A DNA stretch of 64,000 nt from Paraspadella gotoi (Eukaryota; Animalia; Chaetognatha). The DNA lies in NCBI GenBank assembly GCA_051294375.1, contig CM119267.1:22631486-22695485 (forward strand), read 5' to 3'. The position numbers were made by a program, and so were the translations under genes. The notes beneath the pieces are model-generated. The model worked only from the letters and a program-made list of their open reading frames with translations, was not told where the DNA came from and did no database searches. Position 1 is the stretch's first letter. Each line of letters starts with the position of its first letter. This document shows positions 6,801 through 61,952 of the stretch, one piece after another.

Positions 6801-9800
6801 AAATAAAATAAATTGAATAAGAAACACGTGCTATATACAAAAACTCACCTTAACAAACTTTCCACTAGGAGAATAAAAAGAAAGATGAGCTATTAGATAG
6901 GTATCACAAGCAATGTACCCATCTAACACAGCGTTAAGACACCACATCCAGGTTTGGTTGATCATTATACCTGATTGCAATGTAGCAAAATATGCAGAGA
7001 GGAAGTAGCCAATGAGACTCAAGGTTAAATAAATATCTATCCCTGGTTTGATAACATAAAAGGTATGCAAAAGAAATATTTTTTCTATCCATTTCCACCC
7101 TTTCGTCGAGGCACCATGAAATCCAGGCTTCAAGGTTTGCGTCCTTCTCACAATGCGATTTACTTTCCCTTTAAAAGCCTTGTGTGGCAACCTTGAGGCT
7201 TGAACCTCCTCGAGAGCATATTCGATGGCTGGAGCGATCCTTACAAAGGATTTTTGCCAACAGCTTAGAATTCTAGAATTTTCAGAAATAATTTTTTCCA
7301 ATCGATTGTGGTTGATGACCTTGGCTTCGACATTTGTCAAGCTAATGACAGTTGAGAGTTGAAGCACTTCACAGAGGGGCAATCTGGGAACTTGGCCTCC
7401 GGCATTAATAAACTCTGTCACGCCTGTAACGTCCACGACAGCACATTGTCCACGAATGATTTTGTAGACGCAACTCGTATAAGAGTCCGCACAAGATAAG
7501 AAAACTCCTGGTGGGAAATGAAGCGTCCTTGCTCCATAGGAAGCCCGACTTATCAGGATCTCCATTTCCAGCATTCCCATGGTCCAGTAAGAAAGGTCGA
7601 AACGCTCAGGAACTACGGACATCTTTTTGATCGCCTTGGGTGTTTTCTCCAAAAGTCGGGCTTCTTCGGGGAGATAGACACAGTTTGTCGTTACCTTAAT
7701 GTGTATCACGTAGTCGTACAGGACCTTCTTCAAAAGAGGTGAGACGTGATAAAAGTTAAGTGTCTTGATCATGGAATCGATTTGACTTGTAAGGCGGATA
7801 AATGAATGGGAATTTCGCGCAGTGTCCGCTGAGAGTCGTCCAGACAAGGTACAGGTCAAAAGAATGGCGAACTGATTGTAAAATTTTAATATAATTGTGG
7901 CTTACCTATTTATATTATTTCTTGCTATATTCAAAATTAATGAAACAAATTTGTGCAAAATAGAACAGAAATACTCTTAATCTTTCATTTTTTCAATTAA
8001 TCAATAGACAATTACAGTCCAGTGCAAAAAAGAGGACACTCTTCAAACTTAAGTTGCGCTCGTTTTACGAATACATTATAAAAAATTATGAATGATAAAT
8101 ATAGATTTTAAAATAGGAAATCCATATGTGAAAGTTTAAAGAAAATCGGTGCAGTCATTCAAGAGCTTTAGCTTCCGAAAGATAAGTGGTCAAAAACGTT
8201 CATCATTTTAGTGACTACAAAAAATCATATTTGAAGATCTGCCAAAAACCGAAAATACTTTTTAGCCTTAATTTATCGGCAAAATAAATAAATAAATAAA
8301 AAAATAATTTAGAGATGAAACGAAAAATTCGTTGTAATAGCAATTTTTAACACTAAGAGTCGAAACATGTACATTAATAAAAATAAAAAAATTGCTATTA
8401 CAACGAATTTTTCGTTTCATCTCTAAACTATTTTAAATAGCAAAAAAGAAAGTCAAAATACAATAAATAAATAAATAAATAAATAAATACTTTTGAAAGA
8501 GGAATCCATATGTGTAACTTAAAAGAAAATTGGTCCAGTCATTTCAGAGCAACAGCTACCACAATAGGTTAAAAATACCTTAATTTTCTTCTGCTCTGAT
8601 ATTCTGTTTGAGTACCTAGTAGTTTTAACCTAGTAGTTATTTTGAAAAAAATTTCTGCTTCGTAACGGATAGCCACGAATTAACCAAATTTACACCAATA
8701 GTTCCTTTTTCCATGAATATTATTCAGTTATAATATCTTTCATTTTAAAAGAATCTAACTTTTCATAATTTTTTTGGTGTCCTCTTTTTTTTTTTGCACA
8801 CGTAGAATTATAGACAAATGTATTTGAAATTACATTGGCTGATAAAAAAAATAGTCACATCACTATTATTATTATTTTTATAAAAATAAAGATTTATCAA
8901 AATTGATTGAAGGAAACAAACAAAGCTAAAAAAAGTTAATTTGTTGTACCTGGATCCCTATTAAACTCACATAATGAATACCATCGTCAATAATTTCAAA
9001 AGTTCGTTTACATAGACCTATTGTAAGCATACTGTCTATCATTTTGAAAAACTGAAATATATAAAATTCATAGTTGAATAGCGAAAGATATTCTTTGCAA
9101 AGTCGACGATTGCTATTAGTCATAGCCAGAGCAGTAGTCATATAATCCACATAGCTACAAAGATAATGATAATTTAAATAATTTATAAACTTAATGATGT
9201 AACAACAATCAAGAAAAGTTGTAAAACAAAGAAGTATCCAGCATTCATTATCAGCCGCGGTGGCTCCAGTATCCACGCGACTAAAAATATAAGTCAAGCT
9301 TCCGAGGTGAGAAAAAGAAACGATAAAGATAAAGAAAGAAAAGCTTAGTAGAACAAGTTCATGGTAGGACAGGTAACTGGGAAAAAAAGAAGCAATCTGG
9401 AAGCGATACGAAAAGACTTGATGAAATTCGTAATTCTTTTACTGTATATTATTTTTATAACATTTATTAGTTTGAAAACTACTTGACGTTTATGTCGACC
9501 TAAAAAATGTTAATAAAAATTTATTAAAAAAATGTTATAAAAATAGAAGTTTTTAGAGATACAAAGTCAGTTTGGTGGTTTGTTATAATAAAAAAATTAT
9601 TATGTAAAACCTAACTTATTTACAATGGTAACTATTATTTATCAACAATAATTTTTTTTCCCCAAGCTGACATTTTTATTTTTAATAGATTATAAATGGA
9701 AAACGTGATGATTATTATTAGGAGTAGCCGCACTCAATGGGGTGATTCAAAAATTTATCATGAGTAGATGCTCAAACAAAAATTATACAATTTTAAGTAT

Positions 9801-12800
9801 ACTTTCAACGGACTATATTTTTTTATATGGCTCTATATCCTAGTAATTAATTTTTTAATATTTATTTATAAATAGGAAAGGCCAATTTTTGTTTTTTTAC
9901 AGGTGGGTTAAGCGCCCCGTCCCTCTTAACTGCTAAGCGACCACGGGGCTGGAACCCCGGACCTGGCGGAGGCTTAATTCTTTCTCTCTTGAGTCACCCA
10001 GCAAGTCAGAATTTTATTGTTGTAAAAGTAGCGTCGGGAAAAATGACCCTAATCCTTACCCGGCATTCCTGGAGATCAATGCCCTCTGGAGGCCTATGGG
10101 TAAACGAAGAGCAAGGTTTTTTCTTAAAGAATTAACGGAATAAAGAAGAACGAAATGGAACGGAGAGGATAACGTTTCGGGGAAAAAAATAAAGGAATTC
10201 AGATATCATAATTTTTTCTTTAATATTTTTATTTTTTACAATAAATATGGTTAAGAATAAATTAAGAATAAGTGTAAGTTAACTAGAAAAATAAGTTAAG
10301 GTAAAAATAAGTTAGGGGTAAGTTAGGGTTAGGGGTAAGTTAGGGTTAGGGGTAAGTTAGGGTTAGGGGTAAGTTAAGGGTAGAGGTAAGTTAGGGGTAG
10401 AGGTAAGTTTGGGTTAGGGGTAAGTTAGGGGTAAATTAGAGTTAAATTTAAAATTAAGTTTCGGCTTAAGCATAGGCCGGAACAGGTTGAAAACTAGAAG
10501 TTCTCTCAAATAAATAATGGTAAAGTGACTGTTAGAGAATATGAAAATAAAAATAATTTGAAAAAATTATTTCATTAATAAGCGCACGGAAGCCTTTAAG
10601 AAAAAGGGTCATTCAATTCAACTTCAAAATAGGCCAAAATGGAGTACAAATTCAGAAGGCTGAGCTCCTGCCATTCCGAAAATGTATTCACTTTAAACAT
10701 TTGATGCATTCTACGCCATTTTATATCGGTTTTAATTATAATATAAAATAAAAGAAACCTATCTGAAGAGTTGCAGGTCAAACGAAAAAGCCAATCCATC
10801 TGATATTTTTTATGAATTTTTTATTAGTGAATTCGAAAAATGTAATAGAGAGACATTTTTAAATTTCAACTTGTATCATTGAAAATGAAACATTTTTAAA
10901 CTTTAACCCTGAATTCTTCATAACTGGAACGCGTTTATCAAAATGTCTCTCTATTACATTTTTATAAATGTTTTTTAAGATTGCTAATCAAATTTTTAAA
11001 TCAATATTATTGCAGTCGTTTAGGCTGCAACTCTTCAATTCAGTATAGATTCACTGTAGTCAAAATTTCTTTACCATCATTTAACTGAAGATTTGTGTTC
11101 ATGACTGGAAAACCAACAGAGTAACAAGATTAATTGTTTAATTCCCCCTTCTAAATTATCCCTTACCGTGTTTTAACTTCTTACTTAGAATTTTTTAACA
11201 ATCAGATTGAAAAACTAATCTTTAAAAAATGTGCTACCCATTTAACTTAACAATTTTGTTATTTACCGATTTAAAAAAATGATTGAAAACAGAATGTTTA
11301 CATATAAATAAAAACTTCTTTTTTTTGTGATTACTGATGACTATAATGTATTTCTCGATGTATTAGCTCTAATACATCAAAGATTACGCATTGTTATGCT
11401 GAATGACCTTTCCTCTTAAAGATTATTTTATTACTATATAAAGTTAAAAATTTTTTTTGAATTTTTCAATTTTTTTTGATAGATTCTGATAGAGCTTTAA
11501 AAGTTAGATAAAGGTTATTAATACAAATTTTTAAAATTTTTTTGTTTTATTGATTGTATTTTTTCTCTCTTTTCGTTGTCTAAGTGAATATTAGGAATTG
11601 TTTATTGTTTGCCAATACAACAATTTTTATTGTCATAGAACATGTTTCGACTCTGTTGATTCGAGTCTCATCAGAGTCGAAACATGTTCTATGACAATAA
11701 AAATCGTTGTATTGGGCAAACAATAAACAATTCCTAATATGTTTTATTGATAAAAATTTTAAAAAACCATAAAATTCAGCAATGATGATGATGATGATGA
11801 TTTTTTAACGTTTTTTTTGTTTTTAAAAACGCAATTTCTTGTCAAAATTTAAAAAAAATGTAGTACTAAATTTCATTTAACTTTTCAAGCTCTATAGGAA
11901 TCCGTTCTTANNNNNNNNNNNNNNNNNNNNNNNNNNNNNNNNNNNNNNNNNNNNNNNNNNNNNNNNNNNNNNNNNNNNNNNNNNNNNNNNNNNNNNNNNN
12001 NNNNNNNNNNNNNNNNNNNNNNNNNNNNNNNNNNNNNNNNNNNNNNNNNNNNNNNNNNNNNNNNNNNNNNNNNNNNNNNNNNNNNNNNNNNNNNNNNNNN
12101 NNNNNNNNNNNNNNNNNNNNNNNNNNTAATTTAACTTTTCAAAAAATAATATTTAAATATTAATAACTTTATAAAAAATATAATGATAATATATATAAAG
12201 TAGCAGAGTTTTTATGATTACAATGATCATTTAATAATTCGGAGAGAGAGAGAAAGATATCAAGGTTAAAATTGCCTATCTCTCTATCTCTCAAAGTTAG
12301 TATCCAAATACTTATTAAAACTGTTAAAACTGGCTGATGAAGGTTCAAAAAACAATAACCAAAACATATCCGAATTATTAAATGATCGTGGTTATCACAA
12401 ATAAAAACTTTTATTTTGTAAATATCTATCAAAGGCAATGAAAAAAAGAAATATTATAATTACTAATATTTAAAAAACATTTTTTAAAAAATTAAAAAGA
12501 AATCCTTAGCTCGTGAAGCTTAAAAACATCTTTTAATATCATTGTTGTTATGGTCTTAAATTTTCTTTTCTGTAAAGAAACGAACTGAAGAGACAGTAAT
12601 TATTGATAAGTGTTAATGACAGAACCGTTCAATATAAGCAGTCCCTGAGCTTCGGATCAGGCCTGTAACACCATATTACAGGCGGGTTAAGCGCCCCGTC
12701 CCTCTTAACTGCCAGACGACCACCAGGCTAGAACCCGGACCTTTGGGTTGGGAGGCGAATGTCTTGCCTCCGGCACCAATGTCGCTGATGAACGGTTGGT

Positions 12801-15800
12801 GGATTTTAGTCCACCATACATCCCCCCTCCCGTAGGGAGAAGTCTGTTGCATCTCTTCAGTGAATTGTTGTTGTTGGTGGAAAGTTCGTCACCAAGTTGA
12901 CATGTCGCCTGATGTGTTGTGGGCGGAAAGTGCATCGCCAGGTTGAGCATGTCGCCTGAAAGTGTTGTTGTTGCTGTTGTGTTCGGAAGTCGGGCCTCAC
13001 CAATGAAGAGACAGTAATTATTGATAAGTGTTAATGACAGAACTGTTCAAATATAAGCAGTCCTGAGCTTCGGACCAGGCTGTAACACCATGTTACAGGC
13101 GGGTTAAGCGCCCGGTCCCTCTTAACTGCCAGACGACCACCGGGCTAGAACCCCGGACCTTTGGGTTTGGGAGGCGAATGTCTTGCCTCCGGCACCAATG
13201 GCCGCTGATGAACGGTTGGTGGATTTTAGTCCACCATAGAACTTTATTTTTCCTTCTTTCTCTTCGTTTTCCCAAAGCCCTTCCAGAGCGTATTCAACTC
13301 CGGGATCGCCCCCTTACCCTAATCTCAACCCTAATCCCTAACCCTAACCGTAAGCCCAACCCTAATCTCTAATATCTATCCTCTAAACTAACCTTATCCC
13401 TAACCGAACCCCTAAACAATTAATCCATCGTTCAAATTATCGTCGTCGTATTTGTCGATCCTGACTCTAAGTCATCCAGCCAGAGAGAGCGAGAGAGATT
13501 CGCTGCTCCGTCATACGGCAAGGGGGCATCCATGTTTGATAAGACCGACTTGCCTTCTGCACCAGTACCCTCAGAAGAAAACATTTTTGAAAAAAAAAAT
13601 TTAATCCCATAATCTATGATTATGATACATTATTTTAAGGCTGTATACATTAACATTTAAATTTTATCGGCTCTGGCAATTATTATTAAGTATTATTCAT
13701 ATTATAAAAAAAATTTGAAAAATATAAAAATAAAATTTTATTCTGGTTTGTGATACATTTACTACAGTATTTCCTTAAATGGTATCTTATTAATCATAAA
13801 AATGAAGCAATACAAAAATTCAATTGTTTTAATAGGAACTGACAGATTGATAGTATGATCCAATTTCAAAGTAAAATTTTATAAGTAAAAAATGCTTCTT
13901 CCGAAATTTACCCTCTGTGTAAAATGTTACGAATTGGTGGGGAAAAAAGTCAAATATTTTTTTATTAGTTTGAAAAATATTATAACCCGATTACAAGTAT
14001 ATTACAAGTTTTTTCGTATAAGTCTAGATTGAAGTCCCTGTTAACACAACTCACTTCTCTTCTACTCCGCGTCCAATGACTTCCCCTCTCAGCTCCACAG
14101 CTGTGGAAAGAGTGGAGAGATTCTCTTTGAAGTTAGCTCTCCATCCTGGAAAGGCGTCGGCACAGACAGTATCATTGAATAGGCGATTAGAGGCAGCAGC
14201 AATGGTGGAGCAGAGAGAATCTGAGCTTCTCCATACCATTGCCGCTATTCCGAAGCCTGTCCGAGCACTGTAGTGAGCCGCGGTAAAAATTACCATCAAG
14301 TACCCGATGACCATAATGAAGCTCTGAATATAGTGGTGGAGCCGGAGGGGTAGTAATTATAGTGAGAGCATGTATTAATTCTGTAGTAAAGATGAATAAG
14401 TTTTATTGTTTCACTTGTAATCTCCATGACAAGAAATTTTGGACGTAAAACACAAGGCGTAGGAACTTGAAGGCTGGCTTGAATATTGTAATAAATCGTA
14501 TGATAGTAACATAACCGCCCTAAGTGAATAATATGGTTATTGGTTAGAACTATCTTAATTATGATTAATAACTAAGCAAATCAGTAAAACACTAAATAAA
14601 TTATAAATGGGATAACAGAGAATTCTTTGTTAAATTGAATATCAATATCTATCAATCAATATTTAATATGCAATCAATCAAAAAACATAAACTAGCAAAC
14701 TGGAAAAGAATAAAGTTTGGCAACCGAGGGAAATCTATTTGACTGGCCCAAGGAGTTTGAGTGGTCATCTACTGTCACAGACCTGTTATGTATATTGCAA
14801 AATTACTTGTTTCACTATCTATAGTTTTTAGGTGGTAATTGGTAATATTCTTATTTTTACATTAATGCTTTATGAAATTGGTACAAGCCATATAAAAATT
14901 ATCCATTCAGCTATCTTGCTCCTGACTTTGAACAGGCTTTGGTGGTTTAAGGCATCCATCACTCTTACAAGATAATGACATAGCAGGCTCCTGCAAGCTT
15001 TCAATCAAGACTCTCTCACTCTCTCGTTTATTCACTCCCAAGGTACCTGGTAAAGAGACAGTAATTATTGTTATGTGTTAGTGATAGAACCTTTCAATAT
15101 AAGCAGTCCCTGAGCTTCGGATCAGGCTGTAACACCGATTTACAGGCGGGTTAAGCGCCCCGTCCCTCTTAACTGCCAGGCGACCACCGGGCTAAAACCC
15201 CGGACCTTTGGGTTGGGAGGCGAATGACTTGCCTCCGGCACCAATGGCCGCTGATGAACGGTTGGTGGATTTTAGTCCACCATACATCCCCCCTCCCATA
15301 GGGATAAGTCTGTTGCGTCTCTTCAGTGAATTGTTGTTGTTGGTGGAAAGTTCATCACCAAGTTGAGGCATGTCGCCTGATGTGTTGTGTGCAGAAAGTG
15401 CATCGCCAGGTTGAGGCATGTCGCCTGAAAGTGTTGTTGTTGCTGTTGTGTTCGGAAGTCAGGCTCACCAATAAAGAGACAGTAATTATTGTTAAGTGTT
15501 AATGACGAAACCGTTCAATATAAGCAGTCCCTGAGCTTCGGATCAGGCTGTAATACCGAGTTACAGGCGGGTTAAGCGCCCCGTCCCTCTTAACTGCCAG
15601 GCGACCACCGGGCTCGAACCCGGACCAATGGCCGCTGATGAACGGTTGGTGGATTTTAGTCCACCATACTGGCATCCCTATCAATGAAATGGTATAAAGT
15701 TTCAAAGAATGTTTCAATTATGTTATTTTTTGAATATTGGGAACCCAGACTAAAAAAAGCTCTCACTACGCAACTAAACTATGTATCAAACCTGCTCCAT

Positions 15801-18800: not shown

Positions 18801-21800
18801 TTTTTAATGAGACTTGCTCTCTCTTCATCAACGTTTTTTAACTGTAAAAATAATCGATATCATCATAACTTTAGATGTTACATCATTTTTAACATCATTC
18901 TTCCTCTTACTCTTCTCTACTATCTAGGAAAAAAGTATATCACATAATTATTATTATAATAATTATTCAATAAAATATATAAAATAAAGGTAAAACATTA
19001 TCAATTTTTGGTATGCTTTCCCTCAGCATCAATTACTGACTACATTTATGAGGTGCAATGCCTTTAGCATTACCTATTTAAAAAAAATAACTAACTTTAT
19101 TTGAAATAAAAATAAATAACTAAATACAAAAAATGGTGAAAAACTAAACTCTGGGAGTTACTGAAAAAAAATTCAATGTAAATTCGGAAACATTCTGTTT
19201 TTTTTTAAATCAAACAAGTTTTTTAGTAGATATCCACGACAAAAAATGTGTTATACTTTTTTCCTAGATAGTAATAATTGCAATTTCTTTAAACGCCATC
19301 ACAAGGATGATATATAAGATGATTTATATTTCTGGTTTAATTGATCGATGTTAAACTTGACCTATCCCGGTCTGTCTCTTTCTCTCTCTTTCTGTCTTTC
19401 TCTGTTGCTGCTGATGATAGAATTCTATGATGTGAATCTTAATATGAAAATTTATCTCATACTAATAATCTAATTTTCATTCTTTCAATTCTGTATTTCA
19501 ACATTCAACTTTGGTATCTATGTAACATATCATCTTGATTAAAAAATGTTAAAGATGACTCCTTATTTTTTTTTGCTGTAAAAACATCAGCATATGATGG
19601 TCAGAAAAGATATTTTCTTTCAATGCACTAAGAGATAATGATAAACCTGGCAATATGTATTGACTATTTCCATTTGTCGGCTGAACTCCGCGAGTGGATG
19701 ATGCTTTGTCAAGTAATATGTGCTATAAATCGCAGCAATGTGTAGAGTATAACCAAAAGTGCCCAGCAGCATTGTGAGATTCAGGATCCATAACTCAAGG
19801 TAGTTCCTGTGATTAAATTCTCCATTAATTTGGGAAGTTAATGAGCACCCCATGTTAATTAGCAAATGAAATCGACAAATCTCCAATGTTGAAGTGGCAT
19901 ATTGGGTTTGGTATTAAAGCAATAGCCGTTTTCAAGCTTATATCTAAGTGGTAGTGATGTAACCTCAGATTTTGAATGACTGACTGCCTGGTTAGCCAAA
20001 AAATCTAAGAAATTCCAATCCTAGCCTTGAGGCCTTAAACCACCAAAGCCTGTTCAAAGTCAGGGGCAAGATAGCTTATTTATTAAATGAATGGATAATT
20101 TTTATATTGGTTGTAACAATTTCATAAAATTCAGCTCTTTGTATTTTGATGCTGGCGGAGTACAATATAGTATTCCCCAATCTAATACTTAAGGAGGTGG
20201 TCTTTTAATACAATTGAAACATTCTTTGAAATATTATACCACTTCATTGATAGGGAAGCCAGGTACTCTGGGAGTGAATAAACGAGACTGTTAGAGAGTC
20301 TTGATTGAAAGCTTGCAGGGACCTGCTATGGCATTTTCTTGTAAGAGTGATGGAGGCCTTAAACCACCAAAGCCTGTCCAAAGTCAGGGGCAAGATAGCT
20401 TATTTATTAAATGAATGGAGATTTTTTCTATCGGTTGTACCAATTTCATACAATGCATTATATTAAATACATTTTATCTACAGAAATCTGAACCCACTGA
20501 TTCTTCCCTGGGTAAGACTTCATCTGAGCCAATTTGTCTAGTCGCAATAAAGACGAAGTGTTGGGAGAGCATTGGCATCAGCGAAATTGAGGTTCGGCAG
20601 AAAGAAGCGAAACGTAAACTCGGGAGGGGAAACGCCCCAGTCCCCGGTCGTGGAGAAGTAGAAGAATTGATTGTGTTGAAAACGATCGGTACCACTGGAA
20701 GATTTTTGCTTTGATTGGGGGATAAAAATAAAGAGGAAAGTTAGGTTAAGACCTAAGACCTTTCATATTTAGTGTCTTGTAAGATTTGACAAGGGTTAGT
20801 GATATAGATATGAATTTTTGTATTCCAGTTTGTTATTTTTATTTCACGCTTTTTTTACTGGCAAAACAACGTTATTAGCTAGGTGACTCACACCAGGTGA
20901 ATGAACCACGTTCGCTTAAGACACTCCCCAAGATTGAGGCGAATCAGAGAGCATTTATCATTGACGCAGTCAATCACACGAAACTTCTCATCCGGCAACT
21001 TGAAGTAGCTTAAACACATGAGGAAAAAAGAAAGAATATTTGTAAGTTATAAATTATTTAATTCCTGACGTTCAGATCAGGCTGCACTGGCTGCAGCATT
21101 ACGCTATTGGAAGATTAATGGGCCCATCCCACTTATTTATGAGGCGGCTCTGCCTTTGGAACGCAGCAATGACAGGAGGCAAACATATTGAGTCTGAGAC
21201 CATTGCCGGCTGCGATCGGTTTTATGTCATTACAACATCTTTCAATACTTGTTTCCACAATAAATAAACGGGAGGGCCAGCCAGAAGGAGGCGTAGGCCT
21301 GCTCGAGAATGAATCCCCAGATCATAATGACAACAACGTTGAAGTGCTTCCCGAGGTACAACTTTAGGAAGACGGCATCACGAACAATGAAAAAGGCACG
21401 GAAAACCCCTTTGACAGTTGGAAAAAGAGGAGGGTTCAAGATTAACTCATATAATCAAACATCAAGATACTGTTTGATATAGTATTGTGCTCAATGTAAA
21501 AGCTAATATCAAGTTCAACTTGTTCACCTATGTAGTTAAAGAAATAACAAATTAAGTCCCCAATCCACTGTCCAAACAACGCATGAAGAATAGGCAAAAG
21601 AACTTGGTAGGGAAATGCAAGAAGTAGTGGCTTCCTATTAAATGACAGTTAGAGTTAAGAAACAAAGAAATAAATAGTAAAAGAATTTAGAATATCAATA
21701 AAACATAGGACAAATTTGTACAAAATCAAACATGTATATGTAATTTTTGTAATGTATTTATCACTTTTAACCACTATTTTAGAATGTAAGAAAGCTTATT

Positions 21801-38649: not shown

Positions 38650-41600
38650 TTACTTTTTTCTCTTCATCGAATCAACTCGTTTGACGCTTGGCTGCTGAAA
38701 GCTTCTTTGCCGAGGGATGCCCTTTTGCTGGTCTCCGTTCTTTGGTTGTAAGAAACTATTTTGAAGTTCAACGTTTTTCACTTGAGACTGTTGATCGACG
38801 TTTCGCTGCTGAATTCCCGTTTGCTTTTCGACGTTAATTGACTGTTGATTCCTTTTCTTTTCTTCCTCCATCGTTTCCTCCGTCTCCGCTGCAGAAATGT
38901 CGTCGCTGCTGGCGGCGGCGATTTTCACTGATTTCAGGTCGTCGAAGTTAATTATCAGAACCGTGATGTTGTCGATGGCGCCTTTAGAAATAAAAATTAA
39001 TTGCTTAGTTTACTTTCTTCTAATCCCGCTCCCCTTAAATCTCAATCGACATCCTGACCTTGCTTGTAAACGTGGCGAACCAAGCTCCTCGCCCCGAATT
39101 GAGGCTCGTCTAGTCGCTGCTTGATAAAGTCGACTGCGTCTTGGTTGGAGATGCAGTCCCAAAGCCCGTCGGTCGCCATGATCATGAATCTGGTTGGTAG
39201 ACGATTATTAACTCGTTTTAAAATTGTTATCCATTTCAAAGTATTTGGTGACAAAGCATAACTTTCATGCATAAGGTTTAATTTTATATCATTAACTCTC
39301 TTTACTTTGGATTGAGTTCCCCCAATGCGAAGCTCCTGACGTCGGGATCAGCGACGATGAGATTCTTTTGTTTGAGATTTAAATCTCCGAGCGCCCGCGA
39401 GGTGGCGAGGACGCCGCCCACTCGCCAGACTCCGTGAAAAGATATAAAACCGCCGGCGGCTTTGATTCGCTTTCGTTCGGACAACTGTGGATCAAATTGG
39501 GACGATGTTAAGATTTAATGTCCATTCAACTCCTCGCACCCGCTTTGTGGACCTGCTGCGGTTTGTGATCGACTGTGAGGGCGATGGCTTCGCCGCTTCC
39601 GTCACAGACGACGCTTCTCGAGTCGCCGACGTTCGCGACGTGGAGCGTCTCGCCTCGAATCAGCGAGACCAAACAGGTGGTGCCGCCTGTAGGGCCGGCG
39701 GTGATCTTGGCGATAGAGAGAAGTTGTTCGTCCAGGCTGAAGATTGGGGAATAGGGAGAGAGGAGGGTACCACTCCATAACGAGGCTCTGGTTTTCAACG
39801 ACTTTATCGTCCCGATCTAATCGTCACCTCAGGATGGAGTCCCTCAAGATGAGGCCGAAGTCAGCGTCGGCGCCGCTGAGGGCCGATTTGAGAATCCGCA
39901 CCATGATGGACTTGAATAGAGTTTTCTCCACGAAGTCGGCGGCGAACTGTTGGTATGATTTGGGATAAAAAGTCTACTTTAAAGAAAATCAAGGTCGCAT
40001 ATCGATTCTATATTATTGTTTTAGTTTTTTACGTTGTACATAAACGTATATTGATTAAGTTCTAAATTTATTTACGTATTAAATTCAGCTCTATCTATAG
40101 TATAAATATTTTTTTGATAATAAAATAATCCCAATGTTATTTTACGTACTAATGTTTCTTCGAATAATAAAAGTATTATCCCTTTGCCTCGGCTGTACTG
40201 CACTGAAAATATAGATGGTCTTTTGTTTATAAAGTGAGCCTCACTTCCAAGGCTCATTTACATAGAATCAGTTTTGTGTTTTGACTGGAGTAGAAACGTT
40301 AAAATTTTAATTAATAAATAATACTTTTAATTGTAAATAATCCTAATTATTATAATTACCCTTATTATACACTTTAGTATTATAGAATTTATTAGTTTCT
40401 GGAATAAAATTTTCTCTATTTCACCTTGAAATACTTCAATTCGTTTAAATAATCATAGGAGGTCCTCACGCTACCAAATTGGAAAAAAGTATGAGGAGAA
40501 AATTTTTGCGCCCCTTCGGCATACTTACCTGGCTCAGGGGATACCTTGATCAGCAAGGAGGTTCCCCCAGGGCGAGGCCCTTCCATTGCACTACGGTTGG
40601 GCTGACCCTTGCGATTTCCCCAAATGTGGGAAACTCGGGAGCATAATTTGTGATAGTGGGGTCTGCGTTCGCGCTAACCCCTTATAATTGGCAGTTCTCT
40701 CTAAATATAGTTTGCTTTCATATGCACTTGGGTTAAACATTTTGATTTTTACCTCTCCACCGTGCCCGTCGAAAATCCCACACAGCGTCGTGCCCGTGTG
40801 TTCGTTCTCCAACAAAATAGAAAATCGATCCTCCATCTTGGGACGACGTCCCTGAGGAAATGGGAGATGGTGGTGAGAGAGAAAGGAAAATATCAGGGAC
40901 TAAAAATAGAAGAGATGAAGAAAGGAGAAATAGAAATTGGACGAAACTCGAACCAAAAAAGGAAGACACAAATTAGCAAATATGTGAGATGAGATCAGTG
41001 ACGATGAGAGCGGAAGTGAAGTGAAGACGAAGACAGAAGTCTTCGAAGTACTGTGCTATTTAATCATGAATAAATTATTATTTCTACTAAGTATGCAAAG
41101 ACCGAATAAATTCTCAGCTATCATTTAAGTCATTAACAGTGAAAAGATCCCGGACCGACCTGCAATGCGTAGACGGCGACGCTTCCTTTTCTCATGCTCC
41201 ACGATCTACCGTCGTCTTCTACATCAGCGACTAATAAAAAAATAAATAAATAAATAAATTATCACAGATTCTACGAAGAAATTAGCAAAAATTTTTTGTT
41301 AACTCGCGGGCGACAATTTAAGCTTTTGTCGTGAAATTTTGAAATAAATTAATTTCCCCCTTTGTTTATGACTGCGAAATATACATGAAAAATAAAAAGC
41401 TTGCTGTACTTGCTGTGCCTGTTTCCCGGTCATTTTAAAAATTGATTTCTGTTTAAATTTATTGTAACCAAAAAATCTACAGGGTGATTAACAAGAAGAA
41501 TAAGATCGGCGCACCCGTGTTTGATTTAGAGGCAACTTCATCATCCACGTTACTCTTCTTTCCGCCGACGAAAATGTTGAAGACGGCACCGACGAAGCGT

Positions 41601-50778: not shown

Positions 50779-51683
50779 CTCGTCCCTCTCAGCGACGCCG
50801 GGCGACGTCCGCCTAGAACCCGGGACCGGGCGCCCTCCTTTTCTCGAAGACCGACGCCGCGCGTACCTCTCCAAGCCTCGCAGCGGCGTCGCGCGCCGCG
50901 AAGGCACCGGCGTCGCCATGGTCTCCATAAACTCGCGATGCGCATGCGCGAAGTTGATGTGATAACGCTTCACGCAGGACAGCGACGGAAAATGATTTTT
51001 GGCGAAAGCGTAGACGTGGTTGAGAAATCCGGGAAAACGTGAGATCAAGTCCGACAGGAGGTCGTCCTCTGACGGGAAATGGCCGAAGGAAGAGGCGAGG
51101 GCGGATTCGTGGCCGTGGGTCTGTTGTTGGTATAGGAAAAGGTTGAATGAGGGAAGATGAAGGAAGGGAGAGAAAAGAGAAGAAAAGGGGCATGGAATTA
51201 AATGCTTTAACAGTTTAAACTTTAAACTCTTTATTCTTTTGCACGAGTACGGAGTTTTAAATTATGGGTCCCAATAGTGTAACCAATATATTCCTTCGTA
51301 AACAATTAGAAATGCTCAAAAACAAAAAATTGCGAACTTTAACAATCCAACTTGCGATAAAACAAAACTCAAATTTAAGCTTGTTGAGAAGCCCCTTAAA
51401 AAACGACATCGATTCCCCGAAACGTCCGTCATCTATCGGCACAATATTTTTTAAAAAATGCCAAAAACCTGCGTCAAAAAGTCTTTGGCGTAAAAGAGCA
51501 ACCCGGCGGCGGAGTCGTCGTAAAATTCGTCGTCACCGCTCGCTCGACAGTGCGAGTCTAATACGGAAGAGTCGACGGCCTGGCGCCAATCTTCATCCGG
51601 GGAGAAGAGGTGAAGCATGTAGCTTCGAATTCGGCGGCGACTGAGGGATCGAGGGAAGGATCGAGGAAGCAGTCCGAGATCTG

Positions 51684-51772
<89 letters not shown>

Positions 51773-54307
51773 GAAGAGGGTGGAAGACAGAGAAACAGAA
51801 GAGGTGGTAATCGATAATGCCTTTTATTTTTCCTCTCTCTCTCTCTCTTCTCTCTCTCTTTCTCTCTCTCTCTTTTCTCTCTCTCTCTGTCTCTTTTCCC
51901 ATAGATAGTGCGAGAGATGTAGGAAAATGAATTGCATAATACATAATGAGAGTTATGGAGAGAAAAAGAGAGTCACAGTAGACAGAGAGACGCAAAACCT
52001 GAATGATCGCGTGAATATGCGCCTCGGCGGACCCGAAAAGAGGATGTCCCTCCACTTCCTCCATGGTGACCCTCTTGGAGGCCTCCGCCTGCGTCAGCGT
52101 CCACACCAAGTTCCTCGCCAACTCTCCGCATTTCGAGGTGAGGAGTTTCGGTCGGACGCCGTCCTCGATGTTGCGTTGGGTCAGGCGGTTCGTGCGGCGA
52201 CGGCCTATGAAAGGTTTGGAGGATGACGAAGACGATTACAATGACGAGGATCTTAACAATGACGATAACGATTACGCTGACAAAGACAACAACGATGACG
52301 ATAAAAGTTACGAAAACGATAAAAACGACGAGAACAATGACAAAGAAAGAGAAAATGACAACAAGGATGACAACGAGAGTGAAAATGACCAAACGATTAT
52401 GATAGTAACAACGACCTTCGAAGGGATGTTCGCCCGAGAGGATCTCGTGAAGGACGATTCCAAAGGCGAAGACGTCGCTGAGAATGTACGAGGACGAGGA
52501 CATCTCCGTCGCCGACGAATCCATCATGAACAACTCGGGCGCCATGTAGAGGGGCGTGCCCTGGAGGGAGAAGATAACTGGACGGTAATTTAATACTTTA
52601 ATCTGGACGAATTACTAGCGTTAATCATAATGGAGTAATACAAAAATCACTATTCGGCGTTAAATTCGATGCTCTTCTGTTGAGCCTAAAGTCAAATCGC
52701 GATTTGTTTTTAATGACATCTGGTGCGGTTTCTAAAAAGCATAAAGAATTAAACAGACCAACAGATAGACAATCAGACTGTGACTGTCAATTCTACTAAT
52801 GGAAAAAAGTCCCTTGCTACCTGAATATTTAGCGGATATGCATAAATGTCCTTATATTGGCAAAAATATAAGCCCTATAAGTTCACTAAGTAATCTGCCG
52901 ATTCTTTACGATTGATTAATGATTAATTCTCAGTCTCTGTATGAATTATTCACGTTGAGCGTATTTGCAGGATCCCGGGATTCGTATCATTCAAAAAGAG
53001 AAAGCGAAAGATAAAGATTAACTAATTAACGATTTAATAATTGGTTTCCTTTCGTGACTGTATTTGTGATTATTTATATTACAGCGGCCCATGGTCTTCG
53101 GACCTGCATTCTGAAATAAAACAAATTACAAATTCTAACCTGCAGCAAATTCGTCTTGGTGGAAGTGCGACTCAAGTCGATGACTTTTGCGATCTCGAAA
53201 TCCGACAGTTTGAAAGTAATTTCGCCTCGCAAGTCCTCGTGGATGAGAATGTTTGCTGGCATTAAATAAATTAAAAAAAGCAAAATAAATAAATAAATCT
53301 ATAAATTATAAAATGGGAACGATCAATCTCTGAGATAAAAAATGACCCCATTCATCAAATCAATAACATCAATCAAAAACACCTAAGCTTGAAGTCACGA
53401 TGCACGATCTGGTGGATGCCGCTGTATCGTCCGTGGACGTACTTCAGCGACGCCGCCACGCGACCCACGATCTCCTTCCGGAGAAACCTGGACAAGACGC
53501 GCTTGGACAGCGCCGTCATCTCAGGGTCGCCCGGATCCGGCGACAAGACGTCGCTCATGGATCCGCTGCAGCGCTGCAGCACGATTATTATCTGGTTTCC
53601 GCGGTCGACGCAGCCATAGTATTTGACGACGTGCTCCGTCTCGCGAGTTCCTTACCATTTTAAAAGACGGGGTGAGTTTATCTTGATTCGTTTAAGTAAA
53701 CAAAGAAAAAAGTTTCGATACTGGAGAGATATAATTTTTATTAAAATTTTCAACTTTTCAACTTTTAAACTTTATTGCACTTTATGAAATTGTTACAAGT
53801 TACAACCTATATAAAAATTATCCAATCGTGAAATAGATAAACTATATTCCCTTTTATCATTTGGCCAATCTAGGTAAAAAAAAATAGAAATTAATTAACA
53901 TGCTTTGGTGTTAAAAATATTTTTCGCGCTAAAATGATTCACCTTATAAATCTGCGCCTCCTTAACGATCTGACTCCTCAGAAAGGCGTCCTGTCCGTAA
54001 GCGAACCACCTTCGCCGCCGCCTCCACGTCTCTCCCGCCGGCGTCGTCGCGCAACGAAGCGCCGCGTGGATGGTGGAGCCGCTGGCCACGCCCTGGCGGC
54101 GCCGGTCGAGACGCGAGTCAAAGTCGATGGAGACCTGAGCGGACGCAGAGGCAGAGGCGTAATATGAGGAGATTCAAACTTTGATATCAGTTAATCATTT
54201 TTTGGGTTTAGTTTTAGTAAAAATCATTAATTAACACAACGCTTATATTTAAAATAAAAAAGTAGTGTTCGCTAGTTTTTACTTGAGCTGCGAGAATTGA
54301 AGTCCAT
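50779..54307 (-). CDS. IRE1/RNase L-like protein kinase plus KEN-like domain, no luminal/TM region seen; several 1-nt frameshifts (assembly errors or pseudogene); start uncertain
   Basis: AAAKVV, IVKE, HVVKYYG, IVHRDFK, NILI..KLSDFEIAK, GTPLYMAPE, SDVFAFG..LSGEHPF, KRVTMEEVEGHPLF; KEN-like ISD..DWRQAVD..Y..SAAGLL..LISRFPGFLNHVY. Confidence 0.8.
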
Positions 54308-59876: not shown

Positions 59877-61952
59877 ATGACCGAGTCGGGGTCGGCGCTC
59901 CAGGATCACGGAGGAGCCGTTCCGCCCTCGTGCCGCCTCGCCTCTCCATCGTCGTCGTCCTCTGCCGCCGCGGGATTAAATAATCATGAGACTTTGGAGC
60001 CTCCGACGACTTCAACGGCTCCTTCGTCGATCTGTCAATCTCGTCGCCGAGTTCCCGAGGACAAACCGCCGCTGAGTCCGCCAACCGTCGCCGTTTCGAC
60101 GTCGTCTTCACCGCGGGTCGCCGTGTCGTCAAGCTCCGCGGGCGCCGCGAAAACTAGACCGCCGATGGCGCCGTCGCCGTGCCAGCGTTCCGATGCCTCG
60201 GCGGACTGCGTGGAGCAACTCCACCGGATGCTGTTGGCGTTGGACGATCGGGGGAAGCGGTCTTCGTCGGAACCGCCGCCGCGAGGCCCGTCGGCCGCCG
60301 ATGAGGAATTAGACTCGCGATCGGCGAAGAAAATTCCCGTCTTTCAGGTAAATCTGACTTAAATGAAAAAAAAAGTGGTCGAATTAGTTTGTTAAAGGTT
60401 ACAAAAAAAGGTAAGCATTCTTATCTAATTATAGACAGTAATTAAACGACGGCAAAGATCACTTTTTCTCTCGTTTCCGATTCCTTTTTTTATTTCGGGG
60501 AGGCGGAGGTGAGATAGGTAAAAGAAAATAAAAGGTCAGACTCGAATTCCAGTGACTGAGTGCGAGAGAGCGGAGAAAAAAACTTTGGCTTTTTGACAAT
60601 TTTGATTCTTTAGCAGGAAAAGTAGTTACATTGATATACCTTCCTTTGAAACGCCTACACAGTAAAAAAAAAAAAGTAAGAACCCACGTCAAAAGAATAT
60701 ATATTCGAAGTTGGGAGTTCGATTAATTCGTTCGCGAAATGTTTTAAACTTTAAATTCGGCGGTAAGCGTGTGTCTGGCCTCGAGGAGTAATCATTTTCG
60801 GAGTTGTTTAAAATTGCCAGATCCGAGAACATGAGTTTTTTAAACTTTTTTTTAAAAAATTAACTAGAAGGGAAAACTGATGGGAAATGAGAAATGGCAC
60901 TTTACTCTATAACGTAAAACTTTTTTTTCATTTAACTGTTATTTCTACCGTTCTCAGTTGACGCCGCCTTCGACGCCGTTGGAACTCTCCCCACCTCCGA
61001 CCACGATGTCGGCGCCCGCATCAACTAAGTCTACCTCGTCTCCGGACGCCGAGGATCGTCAAAACTGTGACGTCGTTTCCTCCGGCGCCGGATCCCTCGG
61101 CTCCGCCTCAGTTCAACCCTCCCCGCCTCTGCCTTGTGAGGGCGCCTGCGGTCTTTCCCCGGACTCGCTCGATCAGCAACATCAGCAGCAATCCAACATG
61201 ATGGAGCACCTTCGCAACCTCATCCTGCTCATGGAGGAACTGAGCGCGTTGCGGCGGCAAAACAATCACCTCACGGAAAAAGTGGAGTACCTGGAAAACT
61301 CTCAGATGCTGCTCAGGTGCAAAGCGTCGATGCTTCAGGAAAACTGCAAGTGCCATAATCACTCTTTCGAGCTCGCCACGCTCAGCCGCAAGATGCAGCG
61401 TTCAAAGAAACTCAGCCGGAAATCCGGTTCGGACAAATCCTTGCACAAGGCAGGGCAATCGGTCGTGGACGGCGGCGCCCATGCGGTGGACCAAACGTCT
61501 TCGGGGATCACCAACCAAATCAAGGGAGCCACCATTTCCAAGTGGGGCAAGTTTTTTACCTCGAAAAAGCCCAAGGACCTCGCGGGCGGACACGCCCCTC
61601 CCTTGATCAGCGGACCCGTCAGCCCCGTGGATTATTTGGGCGGATTCAGCGGACCAGACGGAGGGTGGAATCAGTCGAACATTCCCGACAGTCACCTTCA
61701 AGCCCTCGGTCTGCCCACTTCCAGTACTCTTATTCCCACCAAAACTGTTCCTGTGATGCCTACTTCTATCGGGCTAGTTTCGAGGTGATTTCAAGTCTTG
61801 ATAGTTGTTGTTTGTTGTTAGTTAAAACCTAATTTATTCCGTTAGCCAAACGACTTGGAACAACCTTCCGACGCCTACCTCAACCGCCTCCCAGCAAACC
61901 GAGGATGCTGGTAATCCATCGCCAACACTCTCTACTAAAAGTGAACCGATTG
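59877..61952 (+). CDS. 5' exons (59877-60347, 60958-61784, 61846-61952) of an unidentified Ser/Pro-rich coiled-coil protein; continues downstream
   Basis: GC-rich open exons with phase-compatible GT-AG introns (phase 0, phase 2); heptad segment EHLRNLILLMEELSALRRQNNHLTEKVEYLENSQMLL. Confidence 0.75.

Follow-up and report, generated by a model that had tools for sequence, protein, structure and literature searches.

A candidate LTR retrozyme of the chaetognath Paraspadella gotoi whose LTRs combine a predicted twister ribozyme with a tRNA-like cassette

A stretch of 64,000 nucleotides from the chaetognath Paraspadella gotoi (GenBank assembly GCA_051294375.1, contig CM119267.1, forward-strand positions 22,631,486 to 22,695,485; hereafter the window, whose own numbering is used throughout) contains two related insertions, elements A and B, which were examined as a candidate long terminal repeat (LTR) retrozyme, a small retroelement with a predicted self-cleaving RNA in its LTRs. 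Both are minus-strand insertions, A at 12586-13238 (653 nt) and B at 15051-15668 (618 nt), and share 88% identity, in line with the two insertions of some 620-650 bp announced by the original prediction. Element A consists of a 5' LTR (13004-13238, 235 nt), an internal region (12819-13003, 185 nt) and a 3' LTR (12586-12818, 233 nt), flanked by a target-site duplication (TSD) that reads GAAC on the plus strand at 13239-13242, on the 5' side, and recurs at 12582-12585. Element B is built in the same way, with a 5' LTR at 15472-15668 (197 nt), an internal region at 15285-15471 (187 nt) and a 3' LTR at 15051-15284 (234 nt), between a CTGG at 15669-15672 (5' side, plus strand) and another at 15047-15050. 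LTRs of about 234 bp had been proposed; three of the four have this length, but the 5' LTR of B has lost 37 nt within its tRNA-like cassette. Gaps aside, paired LTRs differ at 6 positions in A and 8 in B. Their termini are TAT...TCA in A and TAT...TTA in B, and not TG...CA.

A primer-binding site (PBS) with the start T-TGG immediately follows the 5' LTR in both elements (minus strand, 12989-13002 in A and 15458-15470 in B), and a polypurine tract (PPT), GGGAGGGGGGATG, abuts the 3' LTR (minus strand, 12819-12831 and 15285-15297). By eye, the PBS was closest to tRNA-Trp: compared with the tRNA-Trp-CCA 3' end in Fig. S2 of PMC10886601, 11 of 13 positions agree in B, and A has one extra base. The longest ATG-initiated open reading frames (ORFs) encode 81 aa in A and 75 aa in B, so that both elements are non-coding. 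A TGG-starting PBS, a PPT and a lack of coding capacity had all been foreseen. Ahead of the cassette, each LTR opens with a GGTGGA/TCCACC hairpin (e.g. 13219-13236, minus strand), and the interiors of both elements (12900-12960 and 15368-15430) hold a short internal duplication, with CAGGCGACATG units about 48 nt apart. An LTR fragment of the same family, running from box B through the start of P3, lies at 9897-9964 (minus strand). CCCTAA-like repeat tracts occur at 13311-13415 and at about 10300-10400, each near one of the LTR family's copies or fragments; these may be parts of a Helitron-related or other non-autonomous element.

The length of the TSD could be read from empty sites. Element B sits inside a second repeat, T2, and an uninterrupted T2 paralogue near 20260 carries a single CTGG at that place, as do 42, 28 and 13 contigs in three sequencing runs; this fixes the B duplication at exactly 4 bp. 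Both full copies in the window thus have the 4-bp TSDs first read as GAAC and CTGG, that of B being backed by the empty sites. Parts or all of the stretch were contained in 10 of 12 sequencing runs (four studies, none recorded as RNA), all as contigs; one run that might be RNA was not counted as a sign of expression. Contigs from four of these runs were aligned on 14905-15705, and their depth was not taken as copy number; matching contigs numbered 24082, 4452, 1494 and, in the last run (recorded as organism B, with 151 nt contigs), 3, too few for a range to be given. In the three large runs, loose contig ends pile up at both LTR termini (115, 63 and 31 contigs at 15053; 130, 75 and 22 at 15284), with unrelated flanks beyond them (agreement 0.43-0.47). 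Such heterogeneous flanks point to many insertion sites and an abundant family, and the majority letters at the loose ends indicate that most family copies end in CA, as A does. The LTR-element anatomy of A and B, with LTRs, PBS, PPT and 4-bp TSDs, is real.

Beside both termini, the majority flank letters in the three runs are ATAT, which may be a weak target preference in AT-rich flanks of low agreement; neither GAAC nor CTGG fits such letters. Searches with an exact 26-nt pattern returned 0 matches in metagenomes. A degenerate form of the pattern returned 22 metagenome loci, rejected as chance, with the remaining twister or similarity beyond the pattern at 0 of the 22, and 0 matches in viral contigs.

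The tRNA-like cassette begins at LTR position 34 and measures 70-73 nt; 3 nt separate its end from the GCAGT strand of the twister helix P5. On the minus strand it is found at 13133-13205 in the 5' LTR of A (73 nt, z -2.6; its degenerate box A starts at 13197 and its box B at 13152), at 12716-12785 in the 3' LTR of A (70 nt, z -1.1) and at 15180-15251 in the 3' LTR of B (72 nt, z -2.9). In the 5' LTR of B only a remnant is left (15601-15635, minus strand), the 37-nt deletion having removed most of box A and the anticodon part. In the cassette an acceptor stem of 7 bp and a T arm are present, box B follows box A by 43-45 nt, and box B reads GGTTC in three of the four LTRs. ARAGORN called 0 tRNA genes in the window, the cassette included, and on the 3' LTR of B Rfam gave no tRNA or twister match at E<=10. 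Two features speak against a functional promoter: box A is without the usual A14, and box B mostly has T at a purine position (contig majority letters, against the usual consensus). On its sequence, we regard the cassette as a plausible but degenerate promoter for RNA polymerase III (Pol III), and not as a tRNA.

With boxes so degenerate, a twister retrozyme transcribed by host or RNA polymerase II read-through has to be considered, in which the cassette would be a relic, or a processing or folding signal of the RNase P/Z type. Folding of the cassette would suit this explanation, as the acceptor stem and T arm remain paired but the D and anticodon arms take up a different hairpin; so would a weak mascRNA-like match on the B remnant (E 7.8), and the T2 repeat, which is abundant too and has a twister without any tRNA part. 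However, the 43-45-nt box spacing and the 72-73-nt length are the values of tRNA genes, and the comparable cassettes of Helenus elements, to which we return below, have been argued to be promoters (PMC10886601). Read-through transcription with a non-promoter cassette is in our estimation improbable.

Directly after the cassette, the LTR can be folded as a twister. Its first half comprises, in order, the P5 strand GCAGT, P2' G(A)GG, the catalytic GA, T1' CGGG, the linker GCGC-T and the cleavage site U^AA; the second half comprises P2 CCC, the pseudoknot strand T2 GC, a P3 hairpin, P4 (CCTGA/TCAGG, 5 bp) around TCCG-AA-GC, and ACTGC, which closes P5. Judged from the order of these elements, the permutation is that of type P5; the alternative, type P1, was rejected, as 3' of P4 there is no GA plus T1 partner. 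All four folds are on the minus strand: 13057-13129 in the 5' LTR of A (predicted cut after 13106), 12638-12712 in the 3' LTR of A (after 12689), 15524-15597 in the 5' LTR of B (after 15574) and 15103-15176 in the 3' LTR of B (after 15153); the cut is predicted at LTR position 132-133. The U^AA site, the catalytic G and the L1 and L4 adenines are present in all four LTRs and in both complete T2 copies. Pseudoknots T1 and T2 are fully paired in three of the four LTRs, and the same three fit the full twister descriptor; the 5' LTR of A, with a C.C mismatch in T1, fails it. The claim that every LTR has a cassette and then a twister thus stands for the 3-nt spacing and for three folds, but not for the broken T1 of the A 5' LTR or the deleted cassette of the B 5' LTR.

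The descriptor was run on shuffled sequence for comparison. Dinucleotide-shuffled LTRs gave 1 match in 5000, and 0 in 5000 when P5 was required. Over the 64-kb window there were 7 matches (6 with P5), against 0-4 (0-2 with P5) in each of 20 shuffled windows; given these shuffled counts, a lone match in a window of this size would mean little. Two matches were dropped, one at 15563 as an alternative register of the B 5' twister and one at 53795, which is AT-rich and was treated as chance. Rfam gave no hammerhead match in the LTRs, and the fold is of the twister type. Among the 40 best of 68 variants, 7 fall in the twisters of B, 6 of them in P3 and 1 in T1 at 3-15%; the common letters of the P3 variants within this set restore pairing or fall in the loop.

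The T2 repeat permitted a comparison between families. T2 is an abundant repeat of about 234 nt with ends TGAAA...TTTCA and a type-P5 twister. The copy split by element B occupies 14873-15716 (minus strand), with its own twister at about 14912-14973 and a predicted cut after 14949; the uninterrupted copy, which is the empty-site paralogue, lies at 20215-20450 (plus strand; predicted cut after 20360), and a partial copy at 20029-20133 (plus strand) starts 7 nt before the predicted cut. On either side of the uninterrupted copy stands TACAAT, which may be taken for a 6-bp TSD or, if the ends are shifted, for one of 4 bp, and the flanks of the split copy are unmatched; T2 may be the solo LTR of a sister family. 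The Rfam Twister-P5 model matched the uninterrupted copy (25.8 bits, E 0.001) and assigned P1 to AGG/CCU around a 0-nt loop; a further match to the T2 twister scored 20.3 bits (E 0.44).

Base pairs were tabulated by script, as a MAFFT alignment of six twisters misregistered P4. From the LTR to the uninterrupted T2 copy, 12 of 12 tabulated twister pairs are kept (11 of 12 in the split copy), with two-sided changes at P2.1 (C-G to A-U), T1.4 (G-C to A-U) and T2.1 (G-C to A-U); a fourth such change is the swap of the inner pair of a palindrome described below. Relative to the LTR, the uninterrupted T2 copy has one whole pair fewer in P4, a P3 reduced to one pair, and a P5 replaced by a different pairing sequence. 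A bulged A in P2 is common to both. This covariation has the pattern that a selected fold would leave.

Set against an active LTR twister are several observations. The descriptor was composed after the sequence had been seen, and the covariation compares just two families. At the gathering score, Rfam reports only a U1 RNA gene in the whole window: the LTR twister matches no Rfam model, its long P3 apparently having no place in the 58-position model, and the 25.8 bits of the T2 copy are below the Twister-P5 gathering score of 37.6. P2 has 3 bp with a bulged A, compared with four pairs in the Schistosoma twister table (PMC8501958). Alone, the twister stretch is no stabler than its shuffles (z -0.3 and -0.1), and its minimum-energy fold differs from the twister. 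P1 cannot form in cis, with one G.U pair and a 4-nt loop. Both window copies are decayed, A by the T1 mismatch of its 5' twister and B by the loss of box A from its 5' LTR. The original prediction mentioned neither the missing cis P1, the bulged P2 and the broken T1 of one copy nor the deleted B 5' promoter and the palindromic P1.

The absent P1, the bulged P2, the lack of an Rfam match to the LTR, the competing folds and the one broken copy in four would all be at home in an ordinary TRIM (a miniature retrotransposon with terminal repeats) of the Helenus type, with an inactive twister-like fold that came as a passenger from another repeat such as T2 and acts at most as a structural or packaging signal. 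Such a passenger would not be expected to keep the catalytic positions and both pseudoknots across two families, with two-sided changes, while P3 and P5 diverged, and common variants lie mostly outside the core among the 40 of 68 considered. We think it quite unlikely that the fold is only a passenger.

The missing P1 may have a partner in trans. Between T1' and the cut lies a segment, G-GCGC-U for the LTR and A-GGCC-U for T2; both forms are self-complementary palindromes, and the palindromic form of the T2 linker makes up 97-99.9% of contig depth. As a self-duplex, the segment forms 6 bp at -8.3 kcal/mol for the LTR and -9.1 kcal/mol for T2. Two LTR copies on one transcript can be folded fully nested, with one shared 6-bp P1 and each active site made from halves of both LTRs, and in constrained folding this swapped pair beats two monomers by 12.8 kcal/mol in A and 16.4 kcal/mol in B. 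These models suggest that the two LTR twisters may cleave as a domain-swapped dimer. Unconstrained folds of the transcript lie 28 (A) and 16 (B) kcal/mol below the swapped model, pseudoknots being uncounted, which argues the other way. P1 has been reported as dispensable for twister (PMC6154101), although P1-less twisters cleave inefficiently (PMC8501958). Since a 4-nt palindrome is expected by chance about 0.06 times per family, and since twisters without P1 can cleave, if inefficiently, the dimer is offered as a proposal. The combined picture, a Pol III-driven LTR retrozyme whose domain-swapped dimeric twister cuts only the full-length transcript and whose single-copy circle is shielded from re-cutting, is accordingly put forward tentatively, as possible and no further than that. 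A natural dimeric twister was not found in the accessible text of the literature searched, which left most subscription papers outside its scope.

More generally, we consider it somewhat probable that the element is a Pol III-transcribed LTR retrozyme releasing a monomer that circularises and is then copied and integrated by Gypsy machinery. Transcription by Pol III would begin in the 5' LTR, at its tRNA-like cassette, and continue through the element. Read-through would fit the transcribed strand of A, which has no T4 run, but such absence was rejected as evidence (P 0.22-0.25 by shuffling), and B has a T4 run in its mutated box B. Both predicted twisters would cut at U^A, most likely as a swapped pair, the palindromic G-GCGC-U of one LTR joining that of the other in a common P1, and with P1 shared in this way cutting would wait until the 3' LTR had been transcribed. 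From cut to cut, the predicted monomer is 417 nt in A and 421 nt in B, the lengths given in the original prediction. It would be ligated to a circle by an RtcB-type enzyme; RtcB ligation and dimeric hammerheads are on record for animal retrozymes (PMC7229834). A Ty3/Gypsy reverse transcriptase primed by tRNA-Trp would go round the circle for more than one unit length, and an integrase would insert the copy with a 4-bp TSD; Gypsy-type PBS use has been reported for animal Helenus (PMC10886601). A circle is argued for because an RNA cut twice lacks terminal redundancy and could not otherwise be copied to full length. The predicted circle junction is identical to genomic LTR sequence. The predicted circle is 54-60% paired (z -2.2 and -2.5), a value to be counted against this mechanism, as metazoan retrozyme RNAs are reported to be more than 70% paired (PMC4918200).

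An active twister might instead make the 3' end in place of a Pol III terminator. The template would then be a linear RNA, cut only in the 3' LTR, with the tRNA-like start at one end, the second U^A at the other and about 100 nt of terminal redundancy; it would be copied by ordinary strand transfer, circles being by-products or absent. Here the first T4 run, 60 nt (A) or 153 nt (B) beyond the element, would find a reason, although the absence of T4 runs is not significant alone (P about 0.25). A cut at LTR position 132-133 with a cassette start at 34 leaves a usable R region, a weak P1 would permit singly cut products, and most of the published animal Helenus LTRs compared by eye carry a T-rich run after the tRNA part, at the place of the twister. 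Yet the LTRs share one sequence, so that nothing obvious would spare the 5' copy, the swapped model assembles both active sites simultaneously, and plant LTR elements with ribozymes accumulate circles (PMC4918200). We judge a linear template unlikely, and retain the circularising retrozyme as the preferred reading.

Elsewhere in the window, a U1 spliceosomal RNA gene lies at 40521-40683 (plus strand, Rfam 157.9 bits). A 356-aa open frame at 6831-7901 (minus strand) resembles a cyclic-nucleotide-binding ion channel (Atlas 0.90-0.91, with clusters mostly of Chordata or Arthropoda); no homologue was found for it at E<=0.001 among longer proteins. By eye, exon-like frames of a protein kinase were seen at 51500-52600 (minus strand). 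Exon-like frames of a coiled-coil protein, with a weak likeness to DUF4657 (0.87), occupy 60913-61788 (plus strand). A long near-perfect inverted repeat at 11588-11740, with arms of 26 and 48 nt, is like a miniature inverted-repeat transposable element or a Helitron.

Should the proposed mechanism be right, Pol III TRIMs and LTR retrozymes, which have been described separately, would become joined, and LTR retrozymes would extend beyond plants and beyond hammerheads. It would also answer how a Pol III LTR element obtains a complete template for reverse transcription, and twisters, known in retroelements for processing the 5' ends of RTE-type long interspersed nuclear elements (LINEs), would gain a second function there. 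A natural dimeric twister, if true, would be an architecture new to ribozymes, and its need for two copies would gate the production of circular RNA.

Among known systems, the element falls within the definition of Helenus (TRIMp3): it is short and non-coding, with two LTRs, a tRNA-like part, a PBS, a PPT and a 4-bp TSD. Helenus elements (Kojima 2024, PMC10886601) are non-coding TRIMs of 311-1263 bp with boxes A and B in each LTR, a PBS for a tRNA 3' end and a PPT; those of animals have a 4-bp TSD and a presumed Gypsy helper, and the group may have multiple origins. Unlike the present element, they have no reported ribozyme, the main text of that paper containing 0 occurrences of 'twister' and of 'self-cleav'. 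No likeness of the LTR to the animal Helenus consensus sequences was seen by eye in the accessible part of its supplement, and short motifs from the twister loop and cut site gave 0 matches across the whole of its data file. The original prediction knew of no LTR, tRNA and twister combination in an animal. TRIMs with tRNA-bearing LTRs and a 4-bp TSD were already described, as Helenus; a twister-bearing LTR element was not found in the accessible text of the literature searched (including PMC9695139, PMC13570524 and bioRxiv 10.1101/2022.07.19.500677, with Repbase and Dfam outside its scope).

As in the LTR retrozymes of plants (Cervera 2016, PMC4918200), there is a predicted ribozyme in each of two LTRs, a non-coding interior, a PBS, a PPT and a 4-bp TSD, and the cut-to-cut monomer, here a predicted one, carries one permuted LTR. 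The plant elements differ in having a type III hammerhead, which the present LTRs lack, a tRNA-Met PBS and circles of 600-1000 nt that were demonstrated by experiment, and the accessible text describes no tRNA-derived promoter for them. Another Pol III-promoted TRIM, Cassandra, likewise has its promoter inside the LTR, but this is 5S-derived, the hosts are plants, and a ribozyme is not described for it in the account available through PMC10886601.

Metazoan non-LTR retrozymes share ribozyme-bearing retroelement RNAs of similar size, but consist of hammerheads in tandem repeats without LTR, PBS or PPT, and have longer TSDs (PMC7229834, PMC4918200, PMC6765202). In the amphibian examples, a weak hammerhead helix is rescued by dimerisation, a parallel to the dimer proposed here (PMC7229834), and the pairing of tRNA with hammerhead is already known from non-LTR repeats of Schistosoma (PMC4918200, PMC6765202). 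The twisters of Perere-3 and other RTE elements have a core with reduced P1, and their P3 stem begins with the same CUGUA letters (PMC8501958, PMC7761336). They are, however, of type P1, in one copy at the 5' end of a coding LINE, with P1 completed by the target site, whereas the twister of the present element is of type P5 and occurs in two copies, inside the LTRs.

A parallel in layout was seen by eye in gall wasps (Synergus), in the LTRs of Helenus-2_SyJa and Helenus-2_SyUm (PMC10886601 DataS1). Just 3' of box B, both have a CTGATGAG...GAAAC core that comes with stems I-III and in which 12 nt of loop I are complementary to loop II; we read this as a probable type III hammerhead, unremarked in the main text of the paper. 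The PBS listed for Helenus-2_SyJa is that of tRNA-Trp, so that a tRNA-like part followed by a ribozyme-like motif, and a tRNA-Trp PBS, are found in both, with a hammerhead there and a twister here. If the wasp hammerhead reading is right, the combination of tRNA and ribozyme in an LTR arose repeatedly or swapped its ribozyme; together with the present element, if that too is confirmed, the wasp Helenus would make up a so far overlooked group, LTR retrozymes with a tRNA promoter and an exchangeable class of ribozyme. The element, of which an earlier description is possible, is thus best placed not as a categorically new system but as one that joins two known kinds, the Helenus TRIM and the LTR retrozyme.

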